A stretch of DNA of 63,279 bases, counting the filler, from Bigelowiella natans CCMP2755 (lineage: Eukaryota; Protista; Cercozoa), in assembly GCA_000320545.1 (NCBI GenBank). It is 4 parts of 4 records of this genome, joined end to end, with 100 filler letters (N's around TTAATTAATTAA, not from the genome) between each part and the next. Parts side by side here need not be neighbours in the genome. Positions count along the whole stretch, not along the records: positions 1 to 21,903 come from ADNK01000201.1; positions 22,004 to 42,549 come from ADNK01000815.1; 2 more parts are not named here. One strand, 5' to 3'. The notes under the pieces were generated by a model, which was given only the letters and a program-made list of their open reading frames with translations, made no database searches and was not told the origin of the DNA. Shown piece after piece: positions 3,918 to 37,941 of this stretch. The translations under genes were made by a program, and so were the position numbers. Position 1 is the first letter of the stretch, and the number at the start of each line of letters is the position of its first letter.

Positions 3918-3957
<40 letters not shown>

Positions 3958-4330: not shown

Positions 4331-4366
<36 letters not shown>

Positions 4367-4506: not shown

Positions 4507-4559
<53 letters not shown>

Positions 4560-4863: not shown

Positions 4864-4902
<39 letters not shown>

Positions 4903-7473: not shown

Positions 7474-7516
<43 letters not shown>

Positions 7517-7995: not shown

Positions 7996-8057
<62 letters not shown>

Positions 8058-8641: not shown

Positions 8642-8680
<39 letters not shown>

Positions 8681-8923: not shown

Positions 8924-8956
<33 letters not shown>

Positions 8957-9690: not shown

Positions 9691-9859
9691 TCGTCGTTGT
9701 TGTCGTTATTGTCGTCGTTGTCATTGTCGCTGTCATAATGTGCCGAGCATATCTTGAGAAACAGCTGTCATATAGTCGTCATCACCATCATCAACATCAT
9801 CATCATCATCATCATCATCTCATCATCTCTGGCACGCTTAAACGAGATGATGTCGCGTA

Positions 9860-13981: not shown

Positions 13982-14099
13982 CTCTTGCCGGTTGTAGGCT
14001 TCCGCTTTCATGGTGTCAATCATGCAGTTGCGATGTTCATCTTTCATCATCAAAGACGTGAGCGACGCTTTGTGGATGAACTGTATCAGCCAAATCAAA

Positions 14100-14930
14100 C
14101 TAACAGCCCCTTGCAGTCATCCATGTTGTGCAGCATGTGCATTGCTAGATCACAGGACCATGTGCTGCACGTCTAGACGTGTCGATCGCAATGGGTGCTG
14201 TTGGTGCACAACTCGTGTGGTTGCAATCGCAGACGTGGCCGCAAAGAGCGGTTGTGTGACTGACTGCACACCTTCATTGACAACTGCATTTGCTCAGTCT
14301 TGCACGTCTGGACGTGTGTTTCGCGTTCGATGTGTCACGTGCAGTTGTTCGTCTCAGTGGTGCCACAGCGCCATCTTGGCCAACCATGGAACTCCAAAGG
14401 AAATCCTGCGTTCACGCGTGCACGGAGCTGGGGAAGGGCGGGGCACGCAAACAATGATCTTTTTGTGGGTCTGATCGAAGGTTTTCATGACAGACATGCA
14501 ATGTGTCACGCCAGCACGTGTGCATCATGCACATCACATTGCTGTGTCCATCACAGTCATGACAGACGTGCAATTTGTTGTGCACACGTCACGCACATCA
14601 CGTGCGCTTGTTGCACCTGCTCGTGCAACTTCGCGCGGTCCACATTGGGTGTGAGACGCTCTGGCGCTGAACATTGGAACACATTGCACATTGAACATCA
14701 AAATTTTGACATTGATGTCACCACGTGCTCCACTTGATGCACATCTTCGGCAAGAAGAAGGACGTGCTGAAAATGCATTGTTCTCTGGAAGAAAATGAGG
14801 CAGATCCATTAGTTTGGTTCTCAGACATGGCGAGTCCGGCATGTAGAAAGAGAAAAAAATGGGCAAATTCAAGAATTGACAGATTTTCTCTAATGTCGCA
14901 GGGTCAAAATCGCTCGCATTTGTCTAAGTT
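14100..14930. other. TpA-depleted, TG/CA-rich intergenic tract A
   Basis: No TA dinucleotide between 14176 and 14809. The 7 TAs in the tract are all CTA or TAG. CpG is abundant. Confidence 0.9.
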
Positions 14931-15157
14931 TCTGCATGTTCGAGTACGGTCAGCTGTTGGTAAATCGCCCGATCCACTCACAACCCACAGCTCCACAATT
15001 CAAAGACTGTGAGAGATCGCTGACCTGTGCTTCCTGTGTGTGCATGCACATGCATCCCCCGTGTGATATGGGGAAGCCTCGTGGAGGAGGGCTATTTTTT
15101 GCTCTGACTAGTCCTTTTTTTGTTACGTACGTTTAAATTCAGTTGGAACAAACGAAG

Positions 15158-16265
15158 ATGTCAACCGAAGCCAAGAACTCGAAAAACTGGGAGAAGTTCG
15201 TGTCAGAGTACGGATCTTCACAGAAGGGCAAAACCTTCGCCATCACGGGCTGCACTTCTGGTACAGGCTTGGAATTTGCGAAATACATTGCTGGCCTTGG
15301 AGGGGACATTATCATGCTCAACAGGCCTTCAGACCGTTCGAAAAAAGCACTAGACATCGTGAAGGGAGTCGCTGAGAACAAAGGGGGCAAAGTAACTCAT
15401 ATAGACTGTGATTTGATGGACTTCAAGAGCGTACGTGAAGCTGCAGAGGCGCTAAAGAAAGAGCACACAGAAGTAGATGTACTTTGCAACAATGCCGGTA
15501 TCATGGCTTGGCCTGACAAAGCAACTACGGACGGTTGCGATGTGCAAATGCAGACAAACCACTTATCACACTTCTTATTAACGATGAAAATCTGGTCATC
15601 ATTGGAAGGTGCTGCAGAGAAGCGTGGTGAAGCTCGGATTATCAACCATTCTTCCCAGGCACGACTGGGAGACAAACTCGAAGCCAAATACCTTGAAAAG
15701 AACGGGGGTAACTTGGGCGGTGAGGAGGCTAAGTGGAAACGTTATCACCACACCAAGCTAGCAAACTGTGTTTTTACCTACACGCTAAACGACCGTTTGA
15801 AGGCTGCTAAAAGCAAGATCAAGGTGTTTGTAGCCCACCCTGGACTATCTGCGAGTAATCTACAGGCAACATCCATCGCGGCTGGGGGGATGAAGGGCAA
15901 AATGGATGTACCCCAGACCGCTCAAGAAGGTGCTATGGGCATCATTCGTGCTGCTATCGACGCCGAAGCGCAAAGTGGAGATTTTTTTGGACCCGGAAAG
16001 TCAGGTGGTGAAGGATGGAAGGAGGGATATCCGAATAAAATAGAGCCGGAGGAGGTATTGCCTTTTTCCTTTTCATCACATGTCACCCCATCTACGGAAA
16101 TCTGTGTGCGCACTGCAACAAAAACTATGAGTACATTGCAGTAATAGTTGCCTTTAACATCCTCACGAAACATTGATGTTTCCGTAGGTGTTGCTACACT
16201 CAGATAGCAAAGAGATGCTGTGGAAGGTGAGCAACAAAACTCTTGGAGAAAGTTGGGATCTATGA
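15158..16265 (+). CDS. Short-chain dehydrogenase/reductase (retinol dehydrogenase/WWOX-like), 2 exons (15158-16054, 16188-16265)
   Basis: TGCTSGTG Rossmann motif, NNAGIMA, TNHLSHF, catalytic YHHTK and AHPG. A phase-0 GT-AG intron restores the typical C-terminus EMLWKVSNKTLGESWDL*. Confidence 0.95.
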
Positions 16266-16450
16266 TCGCACTAATGATGAACCACGCAGAACTAGTTCAA
16301 CCATCGTGTAGGATTGGGTGTTCTTGGGCAACTGTCAGGCATAAACGAGTTTGTGCATGTGAATGATGTGACATGAACATCAGCGCATGATGACTCATGT
16401 TGGCGGCTAGCATGAGCAGTCTGTTTTGCTCTTCTGAAATGAAGGATGTA

Positions 16451-17620
16451 CATGTTGACATGTGTTGTTGTGCGAATTCAATGTGGCAACGTGCGCAGCG
16501 CGAAAAGCGCATGCAAAGAATGCATGCATGCTGGCGCAGCACAGAGGGGTGCACAGCAGGGACCTCTTGACATGTTGTCATGTGCATGTGCTGTGATGCA
16601 GGTGCGATCGATCAATGTCAGTTTGGCAGTCAGTGAGACATGAATGTCAAACGAAGCATGATGCATGCCAGCATGTAGCATGACCATTCTTTTCAATGAT
16701 GACAGAAAATTGTGGTGGAGATCTTTTTTCTGAGAATGCTGGAATGCAATCGCATGCGTCGCTTGCGTGCGTGCTGGCGTGTTCACACGCGGGATCCATG
16801 ATCCATGCCATTCTAGCATTCTTTCCAGTTTTTCCCCACCAAAAAACCAGTCCCAGACAACATCGAAAAGAAACAACGATTCATTGCAGTCTGACAGTGG
16901 CCAGGTGCAACTTGAGTTGTGTCACTCCTGGTGTGGAAAACTCCATCAGGCAGAGAAAGAAAGAAAGAAAGAAAGCCAAGAAAGAGAACAGCAGCTCTGA
17001 TCTAGTGATGGTGTGGTGCATCAACATCATCCAATTCTGCAAAACAAGATGAATGAATGAATGAATTGTCAAATGAATGTGGGTTGAATCGAAGAAGAAG
17101 AAGAAGAACAATGAACAATGATGATGAACCACATTTCCAAAGTGTGACAAGACATTTGCAGTGTGCGAAACGCAGTGCCTCGAACTAACTTCAGTGAGGT
17201 CCATCTAGTGAAACCAGAAGGAATCAAGAATGGCATTCTAGCCACTCCTCCGAAAGAAGAAAAGGAGAAAGGATCACGAACGAACGCACATGAACAATGA
17301 ACAATGAACAAAGCGTTGATCAAAAACTACATGCGCCAGAACCACATGGGAGACAGGCATTTGCACGCAGCAGAGCCTCAACAACACTCGCATGAAGTGC
17401 TCCAAGTACGAAATCGACGCTCACAATGCTACGCAGAGCCAAGTCGTTTCCATTTCTGCGACATGGACAAACCATCCCAGCATCTCTACGGAATTCATGG
17501 GCATTTCACCCTTGCGACAAGCCTTTCAAGGGACTAAGATTAGAGAGACCAGCACGACCAAATCACAACGGGGGAATTAGAATCTACCCTTCCGTTTGCA
17601 TCCGATCTTGGCGCTTTCCG
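16451..17620. other. TpA-depleted intergenic tract B
   Basis: Hand count: 14 TA in ~1.17 kb, 13 of them in CTA or TAG context. Confidence 0.85.
17106..17252 (+). repeat. Dispersed repeat, copy 1 (possible MITE/SINE-like relic)
   Basis: Matches the reverse complement of 23652-23861, including an identical 41-nt core TGTGACAAGACATTTGCAGTGTGCGAAACGCAGTGCCTCGA and the block AAGAATGGCATTCTAGCCACTCCTCCG. Confidence 0.9.
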
Positions 17621-17669
17621 ATTCTGTTAAGATTCAGAGAGAGGGGAAGGAGGTGGACGGACAGCAAAG

Positions 17670-18857
17670 ATGGGCATGGTTTATGATGCTTTGTCAGTTC
17701 TGCTGTACTTTGCGATCATTGCGGCAGCTGTGGCGAAACATTCGGCGATCGGGTAATCAAGTGCATTGGGAAAGCAGCGCGGTGTTATTAACCTACTGCG
17801 CGCGGGCCACACTGTGTCGTATCTTGCGTGCTTTTAACCGCTTCGTTCTCAGGTGTGTGTATGGGATTCTATTTTTGGTTCTATACCTTTGCGACACCTT
17901 CAATTTGATCGGAGCTTGGGGGACTGCACGTGCTACTTTTGCCGCATCGCTGGCATCTCTCTTGGCTGTTATCGGTCAGATACCACGATTAGAGGACACG
18001 GCACGAAATTCACCCAAACTAAGGAGTGCAAATATATTATATCTAGCATGAGTATTGTTGTGGTTTTGCGTATTCTCCTGGTGGACAGGCTTTCACATCG
18101 CCCTCGCTCGCAATGCTGTCAAAGACCCAGGTGCTTCGACGGCATGACCACAAATCTAACATGTCACGCATAACGCGCAAGCTCGCCGTACACTTACGTG
18201 AAATTGTGTGTGGAAATTGGTGCTGGTTTCTTTCAGACGACCATTGGTGGTTCATCGTGGGAATTAAGAGGAAGGAAGATCCTTTGTTGGTGTACCTTCC
18301 GGTACGTTACGTTTACAAGATATGCCCCCTCCCCCTATGTCAGCTTTACGTACAACCGTTGCATCCAGCTCTTTATAAGGAGTATACATAAACGCATGGA
18401 TAACAAGCCTAGAAAATGTGATCTCAAAGGATTTCACTCTTCTGAATTCTAACAGGATGTCTGCATCGCTGTCATTTCCTTAATCTCAATGCTCTACAAA
18501 ATCTGCTCCGTGGTTAGTGGAGACGGCATCACCCGTATTTCTTGCTATGAATTCCCTGCCCCCGTCCTTCATATCGTTGTCATCACCGTCACCGCCGCAC
18601 CAACCCAATCTATATCGTTTAAGAGCACTAGCTGAATATCAGTATCACACATTCGTGCAGGGGACCACGCAAGATGACGCATCGCCCTCATCGCCGTCAA
18701 CAACGGCCGTGGCTACTGCACGGAGGAATAATCAACCCAGAGACCTCCATGGAAGAGCTCAGACACCATTAGCATTCCGCATCGAGATTAGCTCCATCAA
18801 CATCTACTTGCTCGCATCCGCCATCGTTCAATGTACGAGTAGTAGAGTAGTAGAAGT

Positions 18858-18888
<31 letters not shown>

Positions 18889-19828
18889 ATAGTAGTAGCA
18901 GTAGTCATATCATAACGACACGTAACTCTGCCCTGCTCTCAAGGTTCGTTGATAAGCTTCGTCGGCTATTATGTGCCGTGGTCGCTGATGACGGTGTGCT
19001 TCGGTTTTACGCTCGGATTTACATGGATGGAGGCCGCGTTGTCGTGCATTCTGCCTGTGTTTGTTTTCGCGCATCTGGTCGTCAACTTGGTGTTGCAAAC
19101 GCTGAACGAGGTGAGGACAGGAAGTAGAAGAGGAAGAAGCAGAAGAGGGGAGGGGGTGGAACAATAATGATGCTGGAGCAACTGATAGTATGGAGAGATG
19201 AGAATATGAGTAATTACAAATCCTATTGTTTTCCCCCTGCATTATCAGCGCATTGAGAATATCTCTTTTCCTTTTCTTCTTCTTCCTCTTCTTCTTGCAC
19301 TCGTTCTTGTGTATGCGTGCATGATGGGGCAGGTGGGAGGTCTGGACTGTTCCACAGATCTTGCGTCCTACGGGTACTCGTCCTCCCTGTTGATGAGTAC
19401 CGTATGATGATAATTATGATGAGAATAGTAATTCTCTAGTAATAATCAGATAGACCAAATTCCATTCTTCCTTTCTTTTTGCTACCCCCCCCCCCTCTCC
19501 CTCCTTTTCACTCACCGCTTCATGTTTGCTGTGTCTATTTATAACGCACGTACACCTGACACAACCGTCGTTATCATCATTATCATCATTTGTCATCATC
19601 ATCATCATCATCATCATCATTTGTCATCATCATCTTCATCATCATCATCATCATTATCATCATCATTATCATCATCATCCCAATCGTGCAGGCTCTGCCT
19701 TTCTAAGCTTGACTTCCAGGGATATGCATCAGGTGTGGTAGCAGTATTTAGTAGTAGAAGTAGTAGTGGCAGTAGTAGTAGTTTGAACAGAATCAGCAAT
19801 CATCATAGCATAGGCATCTTACGATTCT

Positions 19829-19885
<57 letters not shown>

Positions 19886-21583
19886 GGGGGCGGGAAGAGA
19901 TAGGGAGTAACACACAGTCAATCGAGCATTGGTAGTCTTTCTCAGGCAATCGTCAAGACGGTCTTTCCATCTTGTCCTTTTCCTTCCTCTTCCATGTTTT
20001 CTCGAGCTGATTCTGGTTTCTCCCCTCTCTTTCACTCCATTCGTAGTTGTTTCCATTCTCCTCCTCTACATGGCGAGCCTTGCCCACTACCAGACGAAGT
20101 CCCGAAAGGTTAACGAGACCAAGAGAAAGAGAGAGAGAGCGGCGGGGGGGGGTGATGGTAATGCCGATGACGGTGATAACGAAGGAAGAAGGAATCGTGA
20201 TTGATAAGTGCGATGTATACATGCATGTATTTTACATGTGTAGTAGGAGAGGCAAATTAATAAATCAATACACACGTGAATATTAGCAAAAATATAAGCA
20301 AGGATGCAGCCAACAGTATGACTATCTCCTCACATGCAGAAACACGAGGAGGAGGAACAACGCATGGTGGGCACAGCCTGGGGAGGGGACAGTAACAGCG
20401 CGACTCGTGGCATCGATGCTCGGTCGTATGAGTGAAGAAGAAGAAGATGATGACAATAATTATAACTAAGAAGTGTTTATCATCACCCCTGAGCTTCAAA
20501 ACGCTTCGCTCTCACTCGTCGTGCTCATTCCTTCCTCTCCCCCCGCCTTCCTCTCCCCCCTGCCTTCCTCACGCCACGACAAACTTGCAGGCTCGTGCGT
20601 TATGAGGCTGACGGCGATACGTCGCACTACGATGGGAGAACAGATGGAGCTGCTGCTGGAGGCGTCGTGGTAGACATGAAGGGCCATCATCGAGCGAGTG
20701 ATGACGACGATGATGGGACGGAAAGGGTGGAGATGAAGACGAGGACGGTATATGATAGTTGTTATAGTGGCGATGTGTAAGGTCTCCTTCTGCTCTTTGC
20801 AGCACCCTAGCGAGTAATCGCGGCCGTCTACCTTTTCCTTCTGTTCCCAAAGAAACAGCATTTCTTCACCCCTTTTATTCCCCATTTTTTTTACCCCTCC
20901 ATCTCCTGCCACCAGTCCACCCTATCCCTCCCCCCTCCCCTCCTACCGGGAGGAGCAACTTGGATCATGATGGTCGTGGGGTGGACGTTGAATGCATGTG
21001 TTAAAAGTTCAGAATAGATGGGTTTACTGTTTTGGCCATTGCTCAATTCCCTCCCCCCACCCCTCCTCCCCTTTACCCCCCCCCCCCCCCTCTCCCCTGG
21101 CCTTCTCGCTATTTGTCGATGATTGATCTTCCAGAAAGCGATGGACGATCCTGACGGGCATCATGAGTCCCCCGCCATACTTGCTACCTCTGAGGTACAC
21201 AGCACGTTAGCAATAATGCCACAACACAAACACCGTACATCGAACGTCCACAACACAATTCTACGGCTGCGTTGATGGTCGTTCCGCATCCAAGGCATCT
21301 TGTCCTGGTGTTCCATCGTGTATGTAAAAGTGATGTTCTTCCTTATTCTCTCTCTGCTTTCTAAGGATCATAAGGAAGGGCAGCAGGGGCAGCAGCAGCA
21401 GCAGTTTGGGCAGAATTTGCAAGGTGCTACTTCTAAACAACTACCCAAAAGTTCCACACATAATTCAGCATCATGAAAAGAAATACGCGCGCTATTGCCG
21501 TCACCACAATCACCACACCAGAGGCTGCGGTTTCGAAATGCTAGGAATTGTGAAGGAAACGTGCATAGGATGATGATGATGGC

Positions 21584-21616
<33 letters not shown>

Positions 21617-21903
21617 ATTCACCCCGCATCCCCCCCCCCCCCGCCATCTTTCTCTTATCTATCTACCTAATTCCCCCCTTTCCGCCTTGTTTTCCTTCTT
21701 CCTACCCCGTCTTTCTCTTCTCTCACGACAACAACAAACATGCACAACAGAAACAAAAGGACCAGGCATTACCGAGAGACTATGTGGCCGGCTGACAGAT
21801 TCGTGGGCGAAGACACAACTGGAAATCCTCTCTCTACTTGCGGTGGGAGATGCCACGAAAGGGGGAAAGGGGGAGGGGGGGGCGGGGGGGACGACGACAA
21901 CAC
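17670..21903 (+). CDS. Polytopic membrane protein, probable Piezo-family N-terminus; truncated by the gap
   Basis: Spliced exons MGMVYDALSVLLYFAIIAAAVAKHSAIG-CVYGILFLVLYL..ASLASLLAVIG-FHIALA..-WWFIVGIKRKEDPLLVYLP-DVCIAVISL resemble the first Piezo TM unit (..SLVYLLF..HLALQ..IGVTR..APD). Further hydrophobic exons follow. Confidence 0.45.
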
Positions 21904-22003
21904 NNNNNNNNNNNNNNNNNNNNNNNNNNNNNNNNNNNNNNNNNNNNTTAATTAATTAANNNNNNNNNNNNNNNNNNNNNNNNNNNNNNNNNNNNNNNNN
22001 NNN
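21904..22003. other. Assembly linker N44-TTAATTAATTAA-N44
   Basis: Exactly 100 bp with a six-frame-stop spacer; identical to the other two gaps. Confidence 0.98.
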
Positions 22004-22021
22004 CTTCAGAGTTGGTATAAA

Positions 22022-22066
<45 letters not shown>

Positions 22067-23321
22067 CAAAGAGGGGGGGAGATATGTCAGCGGAACAGAA
22101 GAAGGTAGCTCTTCCATATCATTGCCTTTTCTGAAAGACGTGAAGAAGTAGCACATTCGTATTCATTAAAGTGCAATTCCCCAACGATAGACAATCCCTC
22201 CCATCGTAATATATAGTGTACAGGCTAACGGATCTCATGCAACGTCTCACAGAGATCATCTTTGATCTGAAAGACCGAGAGCGTTTATTACCCCGAACCC
22301 ATGTCGCAGAGGCGAATACTGGGGCCTTCCCCGCATGCAGCGACGATGGACGTGTTTGCTCCGGGCGCGTGTGGGATCGAACAGCAACGTATACTGAACC
22401 CGAGGCGAATCTCATCTATCAGCTCCACCGGCGCAGACGCGTCCCATATGCGTATCTTGCCGTCATGTCCTCCCGTTATGAAGAGCCCAGGGTCGGTCGG
22501 ATACCTGAAAGGAGGATTAGGGGTTATCGTCCGGATTGCGTTATACATTTTTGATATTGGTGAATCGACAGCACTTACTCCGTTTGAAAATTGTTATAAG
22601 TGCGTTGAAATGCGTGTGAGGTGTCTGTGTGTGTAGAAGATATACATGTTATGCTCTTGATTTTGTGTTTTGAGTCCTCGAAATATTTAAGAATAGGATG
22701 TGTAATAATGATGACCGCCACTGGTGTGTGTCGTCACAGCATTGTACTTACCACTGACAGCAGTGCTGCGACGACTTGAGGGAGCGTATACGTCCTATCG
22801 GCTTGTTGAAATAATAATGCGAGGAGGAGGAAGAATCAGCTTCGTTTTCTTCCTCGAAATCCTTCCTGACAAATCATCATTTACCATCATTACTATTGCC
22901 ATTGTTGCTATTTATAGTTTTTATTTTCTTCTTCCGAGCTCCTCAAACAACCGAGGAGTCCACAAGAAGCAGATAGGAAAATATCGCTGCGGCACATGTA
23001 CATTGCAGACTACTAGCAAATTCGTTCCTACCTGTCCATCCCATCGTCATCATCGTCGAATTGTTCGAACGAAGGTGATTTTCTGCTTTCGTACGCCTCG
23101 AGATCATAGATGCTCACACCACCCTGTAGGTCGCAGGAGAGGAGATAGCGGCCCGATGTCCGATCGATGTTCAATCTCGTCACCGGTGCCGCATGCAAGG
23201 AGTCGACGTACTCGGTGGACGACAGCAACAACCCGGCTGCACGGCGGGCCTGGACGCGTCGTCGATGGACATCGGGCCGCAAAAGCCCGAGAGCACGGAG
23301 CTTTAGCTCCAAAGGCAGCAT
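22004..23321 (-). CDS. ERCC8: DNA excision repair WD40 protein CSA/ERCC8; 3' part lost in the gap
   Basis: N-terminus LKLRALGLLRPDVHRRRVQARRAAGLLLS..HAAPVTRLNIDRTSGRYLLSCD..VSIYDL, then YPTDPGLFITGGHDGKIRIWD and IVAACGEGPSIRLCDMGSG. These segments are characteristic of CSA/Rad28. Confidence 0.88.
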
Positions 23322-23464
23322 CGCGTTGCCCTTTCTCGTGTCATGGGATGGGAAGGAGAAGCACCGGAACGCAAATCGATTTGTCGTTTTTTATATTTTT
23401 GGCAGCATTTTGGATGTCGCACCGTTGTGATGTAAGTAGAATCAGTGTGTTCCGGGAACTTTAA

Positions 23465-24595
23465 TTTTTCGCCCGGATTGCATGAAGCGGACCATGAAGG
23501 TGTGGTCCATGGGATTGTTCGCTTGGTGTTCGTAGGTGTGGTGTTCTTGCTTGGTGATCTCCAAGCATGAGCAAACCATCACGGCAGGATTTAGGGGTGC
23601 GTGGTCCTGGAGTTGGCAAAGATCATGCACAAAAGACAATGAAACTAGGAACGGAGGAGTGGCTAGAATGCCATTCTTGGTTCCTTGCAGTTTCACTTTG
23701 TGCATGAGCCAACACATGTTCGTAGCGAATGTTGCAGCATTGTCATGGCGTCATGCCCAAAATTAGACCTCGCTAGATTTAGCTCGAGGCACTGCGTTTC
23801 GCACACTGCAAATGTCTTGTCACATTTTGGAAGTGTGGTTTATCATCATTGTTCATTGTTCATTGATTGGTTCCCAGCGCGGACCCCCTCTCAGCACTTG
23901 CAGAATTGCAGTGCCGTGCGATGTTGTGTTGTGCTCATTCTGACCGCAAATTCATGTGACACAGCTAGGCAGGCAGACATGCCCGATGCTTGGTCTCCGT
24001 GGCCACATCATTCGCCCTCATGCACCATCGTCACCGTTTGGAACAAACTTAGAGCTCATTGGTTCTCATCACAATCAGCCTGACATCATTGTTCGTCATC
24101 GGATCATTCCCCTGAATTCTGATCACACCGTGCCTGCGTCTCAAGTGACGCTGGGCTGATCGTGCAATGTTTTGGCTCAGCAGGTTGCTTGCAGAGCGAC
24201 CGATGAGCATCCTGCACGTGCACGCTACGTGCTGTGCTAGCACGACGTGCGACCACGTGATTGTGTGATGATGGACATGCAATTGTGCAATGTGACACAT
24301 GTGTTGCATGTCCCATTGATCATGTGTCCCATTGCTGTGTCCATTGTCGTGCAAGGATGCAAGGATGCCGCAAAAGCACGACCACAGCTGTCACAGCGAC
24401 TAGCACGCATGCACGCAGATTGCACTTCGCTCTGTCCGCGTGCGTCTGGTGCATTGAACTAGTGAACCCAAACAGTGACCATGTGCGTGCAACCCGGCTG
24501 AACACTCGCGCACGATGCAGATCCGCACACGCACTTGCCATTTCTGCGGTGCACTGCTGCGAAAATGCCGAATGCATGTCCCAAATTCATCTTCA
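23465..24595. other. TpA-depleted intergenic tract C
   Basis: Hand count: 15 TA in ~1.13 kb (7 CTAG, 4 TTAG, 2 GTAG, 1 CTAC, 1 TTAT). Confidence 0.88.
23652..23861 (-). repeat. Dispersed repeat, copy 2 (about 65 bp longer internally)
   Basis: Homologous to 17106-17252 in the opposite orientation. Confidence 0.9.
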
Positions 24596-24610
24596 TTAAT
24601 GATTTTCATT

Positions 24611-26144
24611 TCAAGGAATTTGTCTCAAAGTCCGAGACCTGCAGTTCACATTTCTTGGTGGAAGTGCCTTGGAAGGGTTGATCTTACTTCTAAGCCAGAG
24701 GAATCGCTGTGATGCTGCCTCAGAATCTGGATTTGCTTTGGTTGCATTCTCAAAGTCTAGATAAGCATGTACCAAATTGGAAAGCTTGAGGCGAGTTTCC
24801 CCCCGAAGCAACAGAAACTCGGATTGAGAGGGGAGGAGTTTTATCGCTTCTGAAAGTTCTCTCTCTGCCCTTTCGTAATCTGTATTGTTGAACAATCTCC
24901 TTCCTCTTTCGAATCGCAGATGCCCAAAATCTGCGGACAACTTCTTGTATTGATGAGCATCCGTCCCCCCTTCCTGGCTTTTGAGGATGTCCAATGCATT
25001 CGTGTAAAACTTGACAGCGTTGTCAAACTCGTCCAGCTGCTTGTAGCAATTAGCTAAGTTCATGTGAAATTCAGCTGCTTCAGTGTTGCGCGATATGGCT
25101 TTCCGGAAACAGGTGATGGCATCCCTTACTTTGTTCATTTTGAGTAAACTGCAGCCGATGTCGTTCAGAGTTACTCCCATCTGGATATGTATTTCTTCGA
25201 GCTCCTTTACAGATGCACTTTCTTTGCCCTTTGACTCAGAGTGAACTATACTCATTGCGGTCTTTAGATCCTCTATCGCCGAGTCAAATTTTTTGGAATG
25301 CCGGTAAACTGTAGCTCTTAGCCTATAAGCATCGGCTGTTGGATTAGCTAATAGCGACGCATTGAGGTTCCGTATACTTTTCACATGTTCTCCATTCATC
25401 AAGTGTGCTGAAGCTTCATTGTAAAGGGACAAGGCCTTGCTCCGTATTGATTCCGCAATTCGAAATAGCTGTTTATTCTCAGGTTCTATTTTTCCGGCAG
25501 CTTCCAAATCCCCCTTCGCTCTCAAAAACTGCCTAAACTCAACCATAATCTTGGCACGGAGAATGAGAGCTTCGAAGTTGTTGGGGTCCTCCTTAAGAAT
25601 CATATCTATTTTCTGGAGAGCCGATTTCTTTAGACCATTATGTATATTTATCTTCGTTTTTTCAATCTTGTATCGGGTAGAAGTGTCCAAGACCAATGCT
25701 TCATCTATCTTTTGTTCTGCTTTCTGCCACTCAGCGTCTTCCTGCATTAACTTACCTGATATTTTGTATTAGCATAAAAATGTCTATGATGAAATATTCT
25801 CTTCATCGGAAATGAAATTTTTACTCACATATGATAAAGCAGATTCCGGCCAGCCTGTCTTTCAACCTCTGATCTTGTGGAGAGAGCTTCAACGCCCGTT
25901 TAAAGTTTAAGTAGGCGGACTTAAAGTCACACATCTGAATGTAGATTTCTCCTTTTCGACGATATAACTCGGCATTGTTTGGTTTCAAAAATGCAGCTGC
26001 ACCCAATGCTGTCACCGCAAGATCGGGCCGCCCATCAGCCAAGTGGCTCTCAGATATCTGCGTCTGTCGAATAACCGACTTTCGGAGTGCCCCTCTCGAC
26101 CTCGCTTTAAGAGTGAAGGGGTTTACTATGTACTGGTCATCCAT
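24611..26144 (-). CDS. TTC16: Tetratricopeptide-repeat protein, TTC16-like; 2 exons (26144-25829, 25755-24611)
   Basis: Multiple TPRs. ELYRRKGEIYIQMCDFKSAYLNFKRALKLSPQD..LKDRLA resembles the TTC16 N-terminal LCDFSSA..NLRRA segment. A phase-1 GT-AG intron joins the two ORFs. Confidence 0.75.
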
Positions 26145-26598
26145 TAGAAAGTATCAAAACCTGATGGATGGGTCACGCTAATCCTTATTGCATTGCCGAA
26201 ATATGTCAATTCTCCAAAAGTGATACCGTATTTAACTCCCCACTCCCCGAACAGATTGGAGGACTAGTCGGTGCGCATGTGGGAATATCTGAACCAAAAA
26301 ACATAAATGATGCCGAAATCGTGGGATTCAACCCAGTCCCCCCTCCCTTCCAAACATCGCACCGAAGGGGTGGGGACGAAAAACCTCTCCGATCCAGCGT
26401 TTCGTTTCTGAGCACGGTTTCTTTTTGGAGATGCATGCAAATCTCGAGAAATCCCCTGGATGTTTTATCCTGCGACATCAATGATCATTTATCGCATGGG
26501 GTAAATCGACATAGTTCTTTCAAGTCACTTTTTACAGCGAGAAACATCCAAGGACTGCAACGAACAATGAACAGAACACCCCCAACGGGACCAACTGC

Positions 26599-28182
26599 AT
26601 GGACGACCTGCCACGTGCCCTTCAGGGCATTCGTGCAATCGTCGATGACTACGATGGCTTCATCCTGGTGTCTGATAGGGAGAGGGGGATTCAATGAACC
26701 ATAGGGGACTAAAACTGACATTTTTTTGTTGCTTTTGGATTGCTAGGACCAGTACGGGGTTATGCACGACGGCGTAAAGCCGCTGCCAGGGGCGAGTCGG
26801 GCTGTGGAGGAGCTGCTACGTCGCGGCAAGGAGATCGTGATCCTGTGATGTTTAATGCGCTTATAATGAAGATGATGATAGTTCGCAATTATAGACTTGA
26901 TGGAAAGAATATACGCCCTTACACTCTATTCCATCCTTCCAGATCAAACTCCACCAGAAGGAGCACATCGACGTCCAGAAAGCTGGAGAAGCTAGGCTTT
27001 CCCACGAGTAAATTCGCTGGAATTATGACGGCCGGTGAGCATGCCTGGCACAGCATTCGATCTTCTCTGGATGCTGACAAAGTCACTCGAGGATGCCTCT
27101 GCATCGGCAAAAACTACGATACGAAGGAGGACGAAAACTTCGCCACAGGGCTAGGTGGAAGCTCGCCTCATATCCTCATTGCAATGATCTTCTGAGATGG
27201 CTTGAACAGATTCCCTCTTTATATGACTAGTTCACGTATGTGTCGACGTATTCAGACCTGAGGCTTGTTAGCGAGGCAGACGAAGCTGAGTTCATCTTAC
27301 TGAAAGGCACGGAAATAATAGGAATGGGAACAGAAAGTCAGAAACCAGTTGGATACGATTTCTCAAGAACTGGGAAGATTGAGGGGGCCTTACGAGATAT
27401 ATTAATCTCCGCTGCTCGGAAGTCCATCCCAATGCACTGTAGAACCAGAATAGCTTCATGCATCAAATACGTCGTTACAATATATCCTTCTTTCTTAGGC
27501 TTGAACCCTGACCGTGTAGCAGTACAACCGGATGGATCCCTTGCGTACATGCCAGGAAGTTTAGCGGCTTTGTACGAAGATCTGGTGGCCCAGCACTCCA
27601 AAGCTGAAAGTAAAAGCTGTGTGCAAATCTATGGGAAACCGACCGTGGAGTCCTTCTCACTCTGCCTAGAAATGATGCGAAGCAAAGGCATTAAGCCTCA
27701 GAGGGTCGTGATGATCGGGTACGTATTAATTAAAACTCATTGATGATTTTTTCCAACTGAATTGATGGAACGATAACGTTTACAGAGACTCGCTGGAACA
27801 TGACATATGTGGAGCGAACGGCAGTAGCGTTGACAGCATCCTAGTGGCGTCTGGTATCCACGGAAAAGAGATACTGACCTCCTCAGCATTTCGCAGTACC
27901 CAGTCAAATGAAATTCAAATATCAACCATGATAAAGGCCGTGTTGGCCTGCACTGCAGCAGCAGCACTTCTGACGATGAGGAGGCCATTGACTCATGCCT
28001 CTTTAAGGTCTGTTTGCACTGTATCGATTTCGCTCCTTGCGGCTTTACGAGGGACGCGAAGTTATATTTTCTGCGAGCACCACCAATCACCGCTTTGGAC
28101 GTACAAATCTGAACAGCTGGACGCTCTATACAAGAAATTCTCAGCTGTTCCATCCTTTGTGATTAGCCGATTCCAATGGTGA
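26599..28182 (+). CDS. HAD-superfamily hydrolase, subfamily IIA (TIGR01459-like), multi-exon
   Basis: Spliced YDGFIL-DQYGVMHDGVKPLPGA..EIVIL-SNSTRRS; NPDRVAVQPDG..YMPGSLA..YGKP; VVMIG-DSLEHDICGAN..DSILVASGIH. The true start may lie slightly upstream (~26460). Confidence 0.93.
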
Positions 28183-29404
28183 CACAATCTAGCTAGGGAT
28201 GTATATGTCTGATCCACCTGCTTGCAACGCTTAATCCGTACGTACGGCAGCCAAAAATCAAAGCACGCAGCTCGCTAGGAGATTTCCTAATCGATTGCTA
28301 TCATACAGCCGTGCAAGTGTTTCACAAGGTAGTAAGTGATCACGGGAATGAGCAACAGACCCACACTCGCAGTCTGCTACGATAGAATCGATCCCCATCA
28401 GCGCAACATCGCACACAGATGCAGTAGTGCTTGTATGCATCGGATCGCATGCGTACATACAGACTGCACTGTTGTTTGGAAATATTCGGATCGCAGATTG
28501 ATAGCGCTACGCTGTCTAGCTAGCTAGCTGTGCGATGCGTGCGAGCATTTTTGCCGTGATCGATATATGCACGCCACTGTCTAGACTACATAAGCGTAAA
28601 TTAAAAGCAAACTAGATAGCTTTGTTGTCTCACGATACACATGCGCATGCGTGCATTACATAGCCATTGAAACTTCATATTTTGTTCATTTCATTCGCCT
28701 CATACATTGCATAGCGATGTACAGACACAAGCACTCGCTCGCGCAGCCGATAGTAATGCTTAAGTAACATCAAGACAGGGCTTATTATTATAGACATAGC
28801 AATACAAAACATACATAATACATATATATATATATATATATATATATTACGTTGTCTATTATTGTTTATTATGCTTGCTGTGACCGGCTTCGACCGCCAC
28901 ACGATACACGCACACAAGTGCGTACATATATTTTTAAATGGCTATAGATATATTGCAAGCCATCGCGAAAGGCTGGATGACGAAGCATGGAAATTGAGAC
29001 CGTATTCGCTACATGATGGACACTAATGAAATGGAACGAATATCGCTCGACGTAATAATCTACAACGACTTGACGAATCGTAGGTTCGTTTACTTTGGTA
29101 CATCTAATTTTACTTTATTTTACACACTAATAACACTACAATTTCTGGAAAGGTTCTTGAAAGCTTCTGTAGCTGTCTGCTTTCTGGAAGGAGGGCTATG
29201 AGAAAATTTGGGGAAAAACGCGACAGCCTGCCACGCGCAAGACAGTTGGAATAAAACCCGCAGTCAACACTGGTATATTAAGTGCGTTTTCTGTGGATTA
29301 TCCTTCCATCCTAGAAGACAAACTCAGTACTCTGACTTCAATCATAAGTCTAGCTTTCCCTCCTTCCTTTCTTCGGCTGGGATTCATAATCATCATCATC
29401 TCAT

Positions 29405-30348
29405 CTAGCAATCATTCGTCACAATTTCCCCGGACCTCAGATGGAACCAGCATGTGTAAGGTTTCACCTTCTTGAAGAAGTAGACGACTTGCAGCTGCTC
29501 CCCGATGATATGCGTGATGACCCCAGGCACCCATTTTCGCTTAGTCGCTGGTGCAAACCGCCATACTCTCACGTCATCGTTGAGCTTGAAACCTATGCTG
29601 CTGCTTCTACTGCTGCTGCTACTACCATCTCTCCGCCGAGTAAATTTCCCTAATGGCGCGAGTCTATACTTCTCAGAGGGTTTAATGCGCTCTTGGATCG
29701 TCTCATTCTCGTTGGTTTTGAACTCAACTTCAAGTGACTCTATTCCACTGACGCTGAGGACGAGGCCCTCGGCCCACCATCCATCTTTCCGCCTCACGTC
29801 TAGCCTCGTGCCTTCCGTAAGAGCGTTGAAATTAATGCCAAAGCTTTTCGGAGGTTCCTCGTGGTACAGGTAGGCCATGGTGATGTTGACGACAGCTGAT
29901 GGAAACTCCGTCCTTTCGACGAGAAGGTGCTACAAACAAATATTCAAAGGGGATAACCGCGGGTTACACAAGATGAGATAGAAGTCAGGGGGGGACTAAG
30001 TAACAGAATGTGAATGCTGAATTCATCTACTCTAGCTTCACCGGCGCGAGGTTCGGTCTCATGCATATCTACCACTCATAGAACTACCTTTTGTGCAGAT
30101 TTGTAGTCGAAGAGGTCAACTTTTCGAAGTTTACGGATAACCGAGACAACGTAACCTCTGGCAGTTAGACGAGGGGCTAGGCCTGATGATTGCATCATGC
30201 TAACTACAAACTCACGCTTTTGTTTAATGTCCCGCATTAGGTCGTCGAGAGTACGCAAGAGGAGCGTATTTTTGTCCACCGTCTCTGGATTATTTTCCTT
30301 GTCGCACGAATCGAGCGCCATTATTCCGCAAGGAGGGGGCATCTCCAC
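29405..30348 (-). CDS. Hypothetical protein with tandem Tudor/Agenet-like (SH3-fold) domains
   Basis: GTRLDVRRKDGWWAEGLVLSV..LEVEF..RLAPLGKFT and FKLNDDVRVW..WVPGVITHI..LQVVY. An upstream exon lies at 30076-30348. Both ends are uncertain. Confidence 0.55.
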
Positions 30349-31080
30349 TGAGAAGAACGAAGAGCTTTCACATAGTTTTTTTCGTTTCTCGGATCCTGGT
30401 GAAATGTGTTAAGTTTTCACTCAGAAAAATGTAGAAACGAAGGATTGAAATGGTTCGCCCGCATTTTCCTATAAACAATTCTGAGGTGTTTGCGTTCCCC
30501 CCCCATTTGATTTTCGAATTTATCCGTCTATAAGAATACTAAACGACGAAAGGAGGAAGCAGTATCCACTCGTTCAGAACGATTTCCAACCTGCTTCCGC
30601 CTTAATAATTGCCCTCTTCGCCAATACGCGCCCCCTTTTCCTACTCGGAACGGGCGTAACATCGAAGCCACTCACAAGGGGTGTCCGGGGTAGGGGGGGA
30701 GCGGAGGACCTCGCCAACGTATCCATATTTCGGCCGAGAGTTTCAGATTTAGTGCAGAAAAGAAGCATATTTTTACGACTGCATTCCTGAACTTTAAGAT
30801 ACTTTCCACGATGAATCTTATGTCGCTAATTCGAATTCTGCGACTACTGTTAAGAAGACTGATATCTTTCGTCGTTCCAACTGTTCTTCACGATGTGTCG
30901 TACTCGACCTGACGCGAAATTATCTCGGATTGGATTTATAATGTTGTCGTCAGTAGAAATCCTCATGCGTTAGGAACTCAGCGCCTCACCCGAGAATGGT
31001 TTTCGAAACCCACTTGGCGATTTCAAATATTGAGAAAACTACCGGTTTATTTTCGGGTTGAAATCATCTGTATTTTGTAT

Positions 31081-32330
31081 TTTTGACCGGGATTCCGGGG
31101 TGAATCGACCAAACAGGTTCCCTCCTTTTTTTCATTCGTTCCGAAGCCGACACGAATGCGACGCGACATTGCTCTCGATGTTGCATCGAGGTGTGCTGAT
31201 CAAAGTCTGCCTTCCGACTCAATTGCACGTGACACTCATCAGAGTGACAGCTAGATGACTGCACAAATGTGAATTGTTGTGCCAGTGCCACAAGATTCAC
31301 GTAGGTCTAGAAGTGCACGCGGAGCCAACTAGCCAACCTGCCTAGCTAGCTGGCTAGCAACGCGACTTGCGATCGAACAGCGAGATGATGCTGTGGCGGA
31401 ATGAATCGTTCAAGTGATGAAGAATGCAGCCAAGCAAACCTTTTAGTTCCAAATCGCGTGCAAATGCACGCGCCACATGTGCAGACACACACAATCATGT
31501 GTGCATCTAAGAGCCAATCCAATGATGGGCATGCCCAGCTAGCCAGATGCCAGCATGTCCACATGGTCCAGGTGTGACGTGTGCAGACGGTGTGACACCA
31601 TGGCATGCATGGTGTGCACATGACATCACTGTGTCCATTGTGAGCATGATGGACGGCTAGTTGCCAAGATCAGCACGTGAGCATGTGGACAATGACAATG
31701 TTTGGGAAAGCACAAAAAAAAAGTCAGGAATTGTGCGTTCCAGCAGAAGCCATGCTGTGCATTGTGATTGGAGTTGTGTTGCTTGCATGTTGACACAATG
31801 AATGTGCATTTGCATCGTCACAGGCCCGCAACACTCGCTACGTCATCGCAAAATTGAGATGACGCACTGAAGAAGTCGAGACACCGGGCAAACACTCCAT
31901 CTCGACTTTTTGCATCAAGCTCGTTGTTCGAACTGCGATGATGACGTTTCGAGTGCCGTTGACAGGGATCCCTGTGCGATGCAGACTTGGACGCGTGCTT
32001 TTGCAGCCAAGTGCACATGTAGATTCATCGACAATTCATCGCGACATCTACCTAGCTACATCGACTTTCAATTTTTCCCGCCAAACTATGCGTATGCTGA
32101 TCTTGGCAAGTAGCCAGACATGTGATGCCATCTAGCCATGTCGCGCATGCATGTGATGTCACTGTGTCTGTCGTTCCATGGATGCAGTTAGCTGCTAGTG
32201 TTGCACATGCTGAGACTTGTGTGTTCGCTCATGCATGTTTGGACATGCTAGACATGAGCAGTCAATGTTCGTCGGCTACACAAACGGCTCCATCTAGGGC
32301 TGTCTGCAGCGGCCGCACACACAGCACCAT
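31081..32330. other. TpA-depleted intergenic tract D
   Basis: Hand count: 25 TA in ~1.25 kb, 24 in CTA or TAG context (mostly CTAG). Confidence 0.88.
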
Positions 32331-32460
32331 TGTAAAATCGTTAGCAAATGGCATCAAAACAGATCACAAGAAAGTCATTCATTTGTGAGTGACACAAGGT
32401 GTGCCCATGCCCACACATATTCGTTGGTCTCATTCATTGGATGGAGGATAGAGGAAGCCA

Positions 32461-33447
32461 CTATTTCCGATCTTCAACAAACTCGTATCTCCCGCGTTGA
32501 TTGCTACGGTTGCGTCACATGTAATTGTTTCCTCGCTACTCTTTAAATAATTACTTCAGAGCAGAGGCAATCTCTAAAAATTCTTGGCCTTCGTCGCTAG
32601 AAAGAAACGTCGAAAGAGGTTTGTGAAGAAGCAGTTGAACCGATTTGGTGTCTGATAACACTTTGTCGTTTATAATGACTCTCACTGCTGCTTTGGAGTC
32701 TTTTACCAGAGCAGATTTTGTTTCGTCATCTCTCACGCCATTCGCTTCTTCCCCGTCATTGAGCAGCGGTAGCAACCGCTCCTTCAGCGTGGTCACGGCA
32801 TTCTCCACTGCACCCTCCTCTACGACAGCGGCTTGATAGAGATCCAACGTGGCCTCAGGGGAGAGGGGGGGGGATGCAGTCACTAGAGGAGCAGCGAGAA
32901 GTGCGTCCAGGGCTGCTCCCCATGTTCCGGCGAATGCCTGCTGATTACGCTCTGACGTCACAATTGACGCTAATCTATCGACAGACTCCTCGCTGTAACG
33001 CGACAGAAACTCCTGATCATGACGATCAAAATTATTAGGGGGAGGAAGTGAGAATGTGGGGGGGGGGGATTAGGAGACAGAAAAGAGAGGAAACACACGA
33101 ACCGCGTGCGCTTTATACCTAGATCTAAGAAATATACCTTGATGAGAACGCCGGCTGTTTGATCGATTTGGTCGCGGAGGATGGCGATTGCAACTTGCCT
33201 CACGGGACCTAGGATCTGAAATTGAGGCATTAGAGCGATGCGAGAGTGATGGGTGATACGATACTCATTCGTCTTGGAAAGAGATGTATACTATTGAAAC
33301 AGACCTGTGTGTGCGCGCGCGCGCGCGCAATTTCACTTTTATATATTGTTTTTCACACAAATTCCTTCATATGCTATTCCGCTAAATACCGGGTTTTGAG
33401 CAAGGATATTCCCCACTAAATCGGCCTGTCAACACATCAACACACAA

Positions 33448-33503
<56 letters not shown>

Positions 33504-34108
33504 GTGTGTGTGTTGTGTGTATGGCTAGAATTCGGGAATAGCTCCAATTTATGGCTTCTACTACCGATTGAAGGAAGGCGAAGATTGCTTCATACAGCAC
33601 ACTCGTAACACTGCTCTGCACAAAGGAGCTGCGAATGACTGCCCCTATACCAGGCGATGCTGCTGCCTGGCGACCCAGCACATGATCAGAGGGAAAATGA
33701 ACGAGAGGATGGGGCGAGAAAGATGAAGGGCAGGTTTTTTGTTGGAAGGACGCACAACGTTCTTTTTTTTTTTTTTCCATGGGACATATAATGTTTGTGT
33801 GTGTGTGTGTGCGTTGCACGTATGTATGTGTACATGTTAAATTCATATATGTGGATACCTGCATGGACGGCGTGAGCTGCTTCACCAACGCTACTAATTT
33901 CGGGCCTGGGGTAACGAACGGCGTGTCATTCTGTGCTGCTGCTGCAGCAATTGGCCACATCTACTACTACTACTACAACTACTAAGTCTACCTTACTCAA
34001 TTGATAATTCTAGCCCAAAGCATTAGTAAAGACAACAACAATAACAACAATGGCTATTGAAAAAGATCTTATTCCTCACCCTTCTTGAGGCACCCCATCA
34101 ACTACTAC

Positions 34109-34150
<42 letters not shown>

Positions 34151-37100
34151 TACTTGCATAGGATCCAAGGGTTTTGCCTTGCCGCTCATTGGCCATACGC
34201 TCCGCCAGCGAGCTGCTCATCTCGAGGACCCTCTGCATACGATCGATTGCGGGCAGAGAGAGAGGATGAAATCAGCCCCGATTCTATAGCATGCCAAATA
34301 CCCGGCGGCAGCAGCAAAACAGTGCGGACTTACTAACCCAGGTAAGCTCGTTGCGATAATCGCTCCTTGCCACATGTGCGATTTCGTCGATTGCCTCCTT
34401 CACATCCTTCTCGCGGAGGACTTCGGATAGAAGAACGTCCTCTCGGGTGAGCCATGACACCAGCTGTTTCGTCGCCGCCACCATTTCCTCCTCCTTATAT
34501 TCCCCTCCGTCTTTTTTTAGGAGCGACAACGTCGCCTGGCCCTCCTCGCTGCGAAAGTACCTATCATTTGGTTGTGTATTGGTGGGGGAAGGAAGAAGGA
34601 GATGGAAGGAAAGTCAATTTTGTTTCTCTTCAAATGTTTCAGTGATGATGACGATTGGGAGCCTGTATTTGCCCTTGAGGGAGTAGTGAAAACAAAAGGC
34701 AAAATTGTTTTCTTCTGCGACACGCACGCTCATGTCGCAGAATTAACACTGATCCTTCGTCCTAATCTTTTTATCGCTCGCTGCTATTTACTGTTCGAGG
34801 ATGGACTCGGCAAGACGCTTGAGGCCTGATGGAAGTACATACAAAGAGAGGTGGGAGGGAGCGAGGGGGGGGGGGTAGTAGGAGGGAGGAGGGTGAGATG
34901 GATCACTCTCCACCTCGAGTTTTATCCCAAAATCTGACCTGATCCCTGTCCCGGTTGTAGCGGCTCTAGAGAGGTCACGAGCTCCAAAAACGATGATGAT
35001 GATGATGATGATGACGATGAGGAGGAGGAGGAGGAGGAGGAGGATGGGGTCTTCGCTGGCTGCTCCAGCTGCTTCAATACTGAACCGAGTTGTGAGGTCA
35101 TGACGTCTCCTCCATCACCGTCGTGATCATCACATAATATAGCCCACTGCTCAGCAATCGCAGGCGCGAGCTCATTACGAAGACGCTCTGCTTGCCCCGT
35201 TTCGGGAAGCAGTGTGCGGACGGGCGTGTTGATGATTGCCTCGATGCCGTCTCGTATCGCCTGGTGGCAGGTAGGGAAATGCAAAAGAGGGGGGGTAGGA
35301 GGAGGAAGAGGAGAAGAGAAACGATGATTATCCCTCGAATTTCTCAAGAGGAGGGCAAGGTAACGACAAACCCGTGAGACAGAGGCAATGTTGTCCTGAT
35401 TGTTATTCCCTGATTGTTGCGAGAGGGCCCCTACAGCCTGGGCATATGGGCTGCTACTCCTCGCCGTGTCCACAAGGCGCTCGAGCGCTTCGTCTAGATA
35501 TCCTCCGATGAACTTCTTGATTTGCGGGCCGGCCGTCCGGTCGACCTCGGCGCGAAACGTGCGGAGAATCTGATCCATCAATATGAGTGACAACAGATTC
35601 CCAACGATGCATGCGCACGCATGTGCGTGGGGATGGTGTGCCGCACTTCTTTATCGACGTCTACTGCTGGTGTAGGTACAACTTACTTCCTCCCGGACAA
35701 GCTGCATGCCAGGGAGCTGCTCGATGACTTTCCCCAAAATATCGGCCTCACGGATGAAGGCGAATATGCTCTCGTAGAGAACCTTTATATATATACATCA
35801 TGACCACCCATCACCACCATTGCAACCATTTTCGTCGTCGTCGTCATCATCATCGTCGTCGCCACCATCATCGTCATAAACGCACAAGCATCTCAGGCTG
35901 CCGTATACGCCATTGTTCTCTTCGCAGCACTCAACGAACGCGCGCACTCTCTTTTATTTGTAGAAACGCAGTACAGCGAAAATGGGGGGGGGGGGTACGC
36001 TAGCAAGATGGTGCTTGCAGATGTAGCCATACGAAAAGGACTGCCGCTTAACTGAAAACTACGATTCATACCGTCCCGAACGCATTCTTAACTGCCGAGC
36101 TGTATGTGACAGCTCGGACGACTCTCTCCACGGTTTCCTCTGCCGAAGCTGACGATGATGATGACGCCGCGGACAGAGAAGAAGCCGCACTACGACCGGA
36201 GTTCTCTATATTCTGGAATGGTGTGGAAGGTAAGTCAAGGAGATTAGATACAGCAGGAGCGATGCAGCAGAGACGATTCACAACTCCTATTTTTATGGAT
36301 TGAAAGCTGTTTGCAGCGATTTATGCTATTGCTTCCAGCCCCCAGGCATGCGCGAACAGACACCTCTAACAAAGCACTGGTTGCTTTGGGGCCGATTATA
36401 TCCGCAATGGTACGATCGCTGCTTCGAAGCTCGGCATCAGCACGTGCGAGACTTTGTTCCACGTCGTGTCGAATTGTACCGTCGTCTAATACGCTCTTCA
36501 CTCCCTCTTTGCATATACATTTACGTGTGTGTGTGTGTGTGTGTGTTTGTGTGTAGACTTTGATAAAGTCGCCGCTAAATTGATGCATATATGTAAATAG
36601 GTTTGCGTGTACGTGTTTGTTCTAAGTCTACTACACCTGCTGCTACTGCTGCTACTACTACACTACTACTCCTACTCCCTTTGGCCGACACCTTTGAGCG
36701 CAAGTGCAATCTGGTCAGGGGTGCCGATGAGGCTGTCGTCGTCAACCAGCCTTTGCTCAGACTATATACCGCACGCAACACCATCGTACGGCAACTTATA
36801 AAAGATAAGACACATCTACTTTAACAAATATTCGTTCCACTGTCTTCCTCGGCATTATACTACTACCACTACTACCACTACCAGGAAGCGGAGTGACGAG
36901 TCGACCATCTCCGTTCCCAAACCCGACGACGTGGCACTACTTGCGGCGGCAGCGGCGATTGCGGAGGGGGGAAGTGCCGACGAGCGAGCTTGTGATCTGA
37001 GTGACCGCGTAGAAAGAATCGGCACATTGCCCCGGCTCCATTGCAGCACCAGATCAGCGCGTCTAACGCTTGCCACACCTACCCGTATGTTGGAAACGTG

Positions 37101-37277
37101 GTCATTGTTCGAACGAGAAATCACACATTCAATTGCATTCTCACAGAAACCTCTTCCTCGGCCTCGTCCCAGGTCTGGCTCCAGCAAAAACGATCCTGTC
37201 ACGAGGATTATTCCAAGAGCCATAGCAGCAGCGACTGCAACACGGGGTGGCATGGTGTGGGGCCTGAGCCGTCCCAT
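32461..37277 (-). CDS. Putative plastid-targeted protein of unknown function with an internally duplicated helical domain
   Basis: Hydrophobic signal segment (VAVAAAMALGIILVTGSFLL) followed by an Arg/Ser-rich transit-like region. Two similar modules: VLYESIFAFIREADILGKVIEQLP..FRAEVDRTAGPQIKKFIGGY and VLYEAIFAFLQS-ADLVGNILAQNP-ILGPVRQ..LRDQIDQTAGVLIK-EFLSRY. Confidence 0.7.
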
Positions 37278-37522
37278 GGTGTCGGGAGGTGAACGGCTTT
37301 TTACTGTTGTTTATGTTGTCTCATTCGGCCCTGTTACTGCCCCGAAACTAACCGAAAACTTCCAACAGACATTGGGGATATTCGCGGCAGCCAAAAATCC
37401 GGACGCTGAGAACATCAGTACATCGAGCGATTTCACCCTGCGACAAAGGGGAAAATGCGAACTGGTCTGAAACTATGTACGTGTCTCATGTAGTGTCGTA
37501 GTCTGGCGCTCCCGTTGCGTAT

Positions 37523-37941
37523 CGACAACCGACTACCGGGTTGTTCTCGGCCTGTCCAACACGCGTGTGAAGGCAATTGTGTGAAGGCTCTGCTTTTCTG
37601 CTTTTGTGTGCACCTTCCCCTGACCACACCTGTGCTTCGTCGTTCATCTACACCACTTTCAAGTGCATGTGCATCTCTTTCTAACTACACGTGCAGCAAA
37701 TGACATGATGCGTGTGTTGTGCCAAACAATGCAGCACACCTCAACACATGCACAAACTCATGCACAACAGATGTGCTGACGTTCACTGTGCTACACCCAC
37801 ATGCCCAAACCCCAGATGTGCGGAATGCTAGAATGTTCGATGACTATTGATGCACTACACGCGTGCACACAAATAGCCCATTTAGAGGCTCTTTTTCTAC
37901 GTGCACACGGGAAAGGGTGCAGCAAAAATCGCGTGGGATCC
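37523..37941. other. TpA-context-restricted intergenic tract E
   Basis: 11 of 11 TAs are in CTA or TAG context; the tract is TG/CA-rich. Confidence 0.7.

Follow-up and report, generated by a model that had tools for sequence, protein, structure and literature searches.

What removed nearly every TA dinucleotide from five intergenic tracts of the Bigelowiella natans CCMP2755 genome, leaving almost only those preceded by C or followed by G? The tracts (14100-14930, 16451-17620, 23465-24595, 31081-32330, and 37523-37941; tracts 1 to 5, 4,801 bp in total) lie in the window, by which we mean the whole stretch of 63,279 nucleotides that was analysed. With D = A/G/T and H = A/C/T, we refer to the palindromic TA context class as DTAH. 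By direct count, the tracts hold 7, 14, 15, 25, and 11 TA, respectively (72 in total), 69 of which sit in CTA or TAG, and 0, 1, 1, 1, and 0 DTAH (3 in total). Base composition predicts 171 DTAH summed over the five tracts, and the rest of the window, with simple repeats masked, predicts 155. The stretch 14176-14809 contains no TA, and the control 57061-57300 contains 12 DTAH. The totals are identical to those of an earlier note on this DNA, which had expected roughly 170 DTAH. That note had also cautioned that the tract boundaries were chosen after the data had been seen. A two-state HMM, with emissions fixed at a tenfold DTAH loss and boundaries left free, returned exactly five segments (13689-15064, 16158-17625, 23479-24679, 31084-32416, and 37526-37934), recovering the same five tracts and thereby answering this concern. 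Ranked by length, the DTAH-free gaps of the window give these tracts the first five places (1015, 958, 861, 756, and 423 bp); the sixth gap measures 379 bp. An exponential tail fit expects fewer than 4e-5 gaps at the length of the four longest and 0.07 at 423 bp; judged by gap length alone, tract 5 is the weakest.

Contigs from two DNA runs match 13900-17067 and 13900-17115 letter for letter, indicating that the tract signal is not an assembly artefact. No differences were found in 13900-17067 in the two runs, and the tracts hold almost no remaining DTAH substrate. Relative to the rest of the window, TG/CA in the tracts stands at 1.58x and CpG at 0.93x. TG/CA exceeds its background expectation by 383, twice the shortfall of TA (179), implying a contribution from the source composition or a TA-richer source, from earlier rounds, or from CpG decay. 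This surplus, together with some CG/TG variation, would suit an origin without any local mutator, in which TA-poor repeats underwent CpG decay and the surviving CTA/TAG were re-created by C>T. The nearly undiminished CpG argues against such an origin, on which the repeat copies described below bear directly.

A process with this signature has been described in the same species. Working with mutation-accumulation lines of B. natans, Mettrop et al. (bioRxiv 10.64898/2026.01.13.699255) observed hypermutation of TpA to TpG/CpA. Two integrated viral regions accounted for 231 of the 302 nuclear point mutations found in 15 lines, and 230 of these 231 were A>G or T>C, every one on TpA. The mutations occur in situ on the chromosome, in silent viral DNA, with new ones still appearing at about 1e-7 to 1e-6 per site per generation. 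The preprint also describes 124 clusters of TpA-poor, CpA+TpG-rich 1-kb windows, an enrichment of transposable element-type Pfam domains among TpA-poor CDS, and a targeting of transposons that is inferred from composition only. It draws a comparison with the repeat-induced point mutation (RIP) of fungi, although its own main target is single-copy, and proposes an ADAT2-like deaminase, with Bn78255 as the candidate. The main text, as available, does not mention a flanking-base preference around TpA; the supplements may show one or list the present loci. Our literature search on Bigelowiella with TpA or hypermutation found nothing besides this preprint, and one on TpA depletion with transposons and A-to-G found nothing related; searches on DNA methylation did not establish its presence in B. 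natans. The earlier note, which knew of no such description in chlorarachniophytes, is thus superseded on this point.

All five tracts fall within the thresholds of the preprint (rho TpA ≤0.43 with rho CpA+TpG ≥1.52), as do 4 of 63 one-kb windows on a grid over the whole window. The resemblance to the viral hypermutation comprises the species, the TpA to TpG/CpA change on both strands, and the compositional scar; among our tracts, only tracts 2 and 3, through their repeat copies, establish the matching direction on both strands. The targets differ: the measured ones of the preprint are viral insertions of 186 kb and 25 kb on scaffolds 10 and 146, whereas the tracts here are intergenic, measure 0.4-1.25 kb, and are shorter than its three-window cluster rule. 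The process is real and already known, and what we add is the context gradient around TA, polarised evidence from a repeat, and short tracts in which erasure reaches beyond the repeat to neighbouring genes.

Tract 1 (14100..14930; rho TpA 0.14, rho TG+CA 1.80) lies upstream of a short-chain dehydrogenase (SDR) gene with one intron (15158..16262, plus strand; Pfam adh_short, E 1e-21). This gene separates tracts 1 and 2 and provides an un-erased internal control, its exon 1 carrying 21 DTAH in 897 bp. A paralog with 92% identity occurs in a cluster labelled Bigelowiella natans, and its model name presumably denotes another scaffold. Tract 1 is weakly multi-copy (summed contig depth 79-283, compared with 79 for single-copy DNA) and weakly resembles tract 4 over 66 bp (z 4.1; the one value above 4 in 30 comparisons among tract parts outside the known repeat). 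Adjoining tract 3 is an un-erased exon of a TPR-repeat gene (24611..25768, minus strand; Pfam TPR families) with 35 DTAH in 1,158 bp, which is 100% identical to P0122, named jgi/Bigna1/71293 (Bigna1 = Bigelowiella natans). From the naming convention, we take this model to lie probably on scaffold 15, not on scaffolds 10 and 146. Tract 4 (31081..32330; rho TpA 0.32) is rich in surviving CTAG, which accounts for 13 of its 25 TA, and tract 5 (37523..37941; rho TpA 0.42, rho TG+CA 1.78) is the shortest. A Pfam search of 25 ORFs gave mobile-element family matches in none of the 14 tract ORFs and no match for the three tract 4 ORFs tested; a sub-threshold TLC match in one tract ORF was taken as noise. 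Elsewhere in the window, an inverted repeat at 61266-61533 (121-nt arms, 89% complementary, 26 nt apart) adjoins an assembly gap.

Self-comparison of the window identified one dispersed repeat common to tracts 2 and 3. In tract 2, a truncated family A copy with an (ATTGTTC)n-type tail (W17; 17106..17252, minus strand) is 92% identical to the outside copy L003, and seven of the nine differences between them are TA to TG/CA. It is accompanied by a family B piece with the same tail motif (17272..17390, minus strand; 84% identical to L002:170-284, depth about 59,000). In tract 3, a second family A copy (W23; 23482..23874, plus strand) is 94% identical to L005 over 395 columns and has lost 5 of 14 TA sites without gaining any. 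Tract 3 begins on its left where W23 is truncated, the last DTAH on the left being at 23462 and the HMM edge at 23479. Summed contig depth, which is not a copy number, reaches 35,000-60,000 at 17044-17436, compared with about 79 at 16451-17040 and 79 in single-copy DNA. If foreign or mobile DNA was the target, the candidate in these two tracts would be this high-copy repeat; viral contigs searched with one repeat motif yielded no match.

The simple-repeat tail end is common to all seven copies, a finding biased by the use of a near-tail motif to find the five outside copies (L001-L005) in one metagenome scan. Three copies stop after about 150, 180, and 390 bp, and the depth drops from its maximum to 1,000-10,000 away from the tail. 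The shared tail, variable truncation, and falling depth fit the 3′ end of a non-LTR retroelement or SINE, which family A likely represents, its orientation being deduced from the sequence. Rfam gave no matches for the window and four of the five outside loci, and no reverse transcriptase domain or RNA family was found for the repeat with Pfam on the tract ORFs and with Rfam. The AATGAAC-type tail at 17106-17120, 17290-17310, and 23851-23865 has the TG/CA form in all seven copies and could be an erased AATAAAT-type microsatellite fixed in master copies. Three outside contigs carry other recognisable DNA: a TnpB/Fanzor-like ORF of ordinary TA content about 600 bp from the repeat copy (L004:61-549; Pfam Cas12f1-like_TNB, E 6e-17), an un-erased class I SAM methyltransferase-like ORF directly beyond the repeat tail (L002:331-1548; Pfam Methyltransf_23, E 2e-10), and AT-rich phage-like DNA joined to the repeat copy at an A run, possibly in a chimeric contig (L003:1-1365).

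The direction of change was read from the nearest-copy pairs, W17 with L003 and W23 with L005, in which the outside copies are TA-richer. At 12 of 24 TA sites of the outside copies, the window copy has TG or CA, while other bases changed at 15 of 482 positions (p = 6e-11; here and below, p-values treat related copies as independent and overstate that independence). No TA was gained in the window copies relative to these nearest copies. The earlier note had proposed a region-targeted, two-strand TA to TG/CA mutator and the polarising of repeat copies as a check; this excess and the direct measurement in the preprint support the proposal. At all 4 sites shared by W17 and W23, both had changed in the same direction, and hence the events may not be independent. 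Compared with L001, L002, and L004, which are more distant or have themselves eroded, W23 retains TA at one or two sites where they lack it, as expected if every copy erodes independently. One aligned site has TA in four outside copies, CA in one, and TG in both window copies, implying that TA is the hub state.

These comparisons largely refute, for tracts 2 and 3, the origin without a local mutator, which we regard as very improbable. It draws some support from the outside copies, which are already partly TA-poor (rho TpA 0.47-0.75) and, when long, contain 4-5 CTAG per kb. The same copies, however, retain TA that the window copies have lost and keep 13-22 DTAH per kb, so the source is not DTAH-free, a state that the earlier note had named as contrary to its proposal. 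Furthermore, the surviving CTAG were inherited in 5 of 5 cases when compared with the nearest outside copies, and none was re-created. The CTAG excess in the tracts is largely explained by the CTAG content of the source repeat.

Sequence variation within the repeat family indicated where the change takes place. The complete list from one DNA run on L005:120-670 contains 30 variant places, 12 of them TA positions with T>C or A>G changes. Within L005:120-500, T>C/A>G variation occurred at 12 of 26 TA positions compared with 4 of 155 other A/T positions (p = 7e-9). At single TA sites of L005, T>C and A>G were found at 31/31, 40/44, 59/43, and 74/26 percent, which points to DNA as the substrate and to both strands. 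An RNA-level change, such as ADAR-like editing or misincorporation at reverse transcription, fixed by retrotransposition, would accord with a family that looks retroposed and is transcribed with a strong strand bias. The near-equal T>C and A>G at the same sites oppose it, as do erasure reaching 650-720 bp past the repeat, the in-place change in silent viral DNA seen in the preprint, and the 3′ G preference of human ADAR1 (PMC3113232), since TAG is spared here. We give this route hardly any credence. The RNA reads themselves, from one run, pile on 17044-17436 with a strand bias of up to 249 versus 7 mean depth and come from many copies. In the variant tables, RTAA/TTAY sites seemed to differ between the strands, but tract composition gave this asymmetry no support and it was dropped. 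At 17106-17390, among the 40 of 72 variants listed, 8 of 13 non-TA transitions lie at ApT, compared with 25 percent expected (p = 0.006, post hoc); without two transitions compatible with CpG decay, the figure among the variants listed is 6 of 11 (p = 0.03). A weaker ApT to GpT/ApC component in the repeat family is therefore possible, judging from these variants.

Because TpA is palindromic, damage to A cannot be separated from damage to T, and A>G and T>C are equivalent. Oxidised thymine mispairs, and a T at TpA converted to, for example, 5-formyluracil by a TET/JBP-type enzyme would pair with G and turn T:A into C:G. A literature search for such a TET/JBP-type enzyme and thymine in Bigelowiella found nothing. 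We consider thymine oxidation quite unlikely.

The loss of TA is graded by its neighbours. Relative to the background, DTAH survives in the tracts at 0.02x, CTAH/DTAG at 0.49x, and CTAG at 2.8x; with the repeat copies removed, the values are 0.015x, 0.48x, and 2.7x. Finer classes separate ATAG/CTAT (0.10x) from CTAC/GTAG (0.63x) and CTAA/TTAG (0.83x). The window copies have lost 8 of 9 DTAH, 4 of 10 CTAH/DTAG, and 0 of 5 CTAG. The clean pair L004/L005 shows the same order (6 of 18, 1 of 13, and 0 of 5), and so do the variable sites on L005 after one site private to it is dropped (7 of 10, 1 of 5, and 0 of 2). Among the outside copies alone, the contrast between contexts is 12/62 versus 1/63 (p = 0.001), in a multiple alignment whose context labels are wrong at a few places close to an indel. 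In the L005 run, 3 of 10 DTAH sites have no variant at 10 percent, variant calls end at position 499, and a single CTAA site has changed completely. Within the repeat family, variation reaches CTAG as well, in 30-45 percent of the family depth (22 and 23 percent at 17206-7, 30 percent at 17240) among the 40 of 72 variants listed. The sparing of CTA/TAG and CTAG is thus graded, not absolute. The DTAH-only rule of the earlier note holds in that DTAH is lost fastest, and fails in that CTA/TAG is slowed, not immune.

This gradient runs against the 3′ preference of human ADARs. ADAR and TadA/ADAT2 resemble the present process in converting A to I, read as G, and in their 5′ U/T preference, although their natural substrates are mostly RNA. 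Human ADARs rank 5′ neighbours U>A>C>G, and on the 3′ side both ADAR1 and ADAR2 prefer G (PMC3113232), as in UAG, whereas TAG and CTAG survive in the tracts.

The gradient also bears on an error-prone polymerase. Polymerase eta prefers the WA motif, and a polymerase of the eta or iota type that copies repeat chromatin and inserts G opposite T would affect both strands, would need no new enzyme activity, and would accommodate the few A>G changes at AA in the repeat family. AA steps are barely depleted (AAA 0.88, AAC 1.08, AAT 0.97, compared with 0.16 for TAA), which weighs against a WA-type polymerase. Additionally, the changes in the preprint occur only at TpA, with almost no other error type. 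We therefore judge a polymerase origin unlikely.

Erasure continues past the repeat tail for 650 bp in tract 2 (16451..17100; 3 TA, no DTAH, rho TpA 0.06) and for 722 bp in tract 3 (23876..24597; 6 TA, no DTAH, rho TpA 0.15). The tract 2 flank is essentially single-copy at 80% likeness (depth 79-91), yet erased, and between the end of the tract 3 flank and the TPR stop codon lie only about 15 bp. The flanks of the outside copies keep DTAH in four of five cases (18 in 546 bp, 34 in 1,250 bp, 2 in 74 bp, and 2 in 20 bp; L001, 0 in 72 bp). Spread from the repeat and insertion of the repeat into older erased DNA both fit these two cases.

From the species, the depletion, the direction of change in the repeat, the involvement of both strands, the context gradient, and the spared genes, we read the tracts as scars. 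They are likely old marks of the B. natans TpA to TpG/CpA hypermutation, in which a host enzyme probably damages chromosomal DNA and is directed to repeats and foreign sequence; an adenine deaminase is the most probable candidate. The enzyme would act in place on chromosomal TpA, deaminating A to inosine, which would be read as G at the next replication to give TG or CA. Its targeting may follow silenced repeat chromatin or RNA, and the flanks, as well as tracts 1, 4, and 5, would have been affected likewise. Successive cycles of mutation and re-amplification may have left the source repeat partly TA-poor, and the function may be defence. Fungal RIP is likewise a repeat-associated, dinucleotide-specific transition process that affects two strands and can reach adjacent DNA. 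It differs in that its C>T changes, which sequence duplication triggers and a RID-type enzyme mediates, create TpA, whereas the B. natans tracts lose TpA and gain none.

A more specific form of the deaminase reading is advanced tentatively, and we hold it to be somewhat doubtful. The mutator would edit double-stranded DNA under the guidance of chromatin, recognise a palindromic four-base site (DTAH, with CTAG spared), target viruses and short retroposon copies alike, extend some 0.7 kb beyond the tail of the element through single-copy DNA as far as the adjacent gene, and act more weakly on ApT. If so, its fingerprint, unlike that of ADAR, could identify the enzyme.

In any case, a candidate enzyme will have to show the same graded four-base preference in vitro, a fingerprint that speaks against a simple preference of the ADAR type. 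The process has so far rested on one preprint, and the polarised copies move transposon targeting from compositional inference to direct comparison. Moreover, tracts too short for the three-window rule suggest that the erased fraction of the B. natans genome exceeds the 124 clusters.
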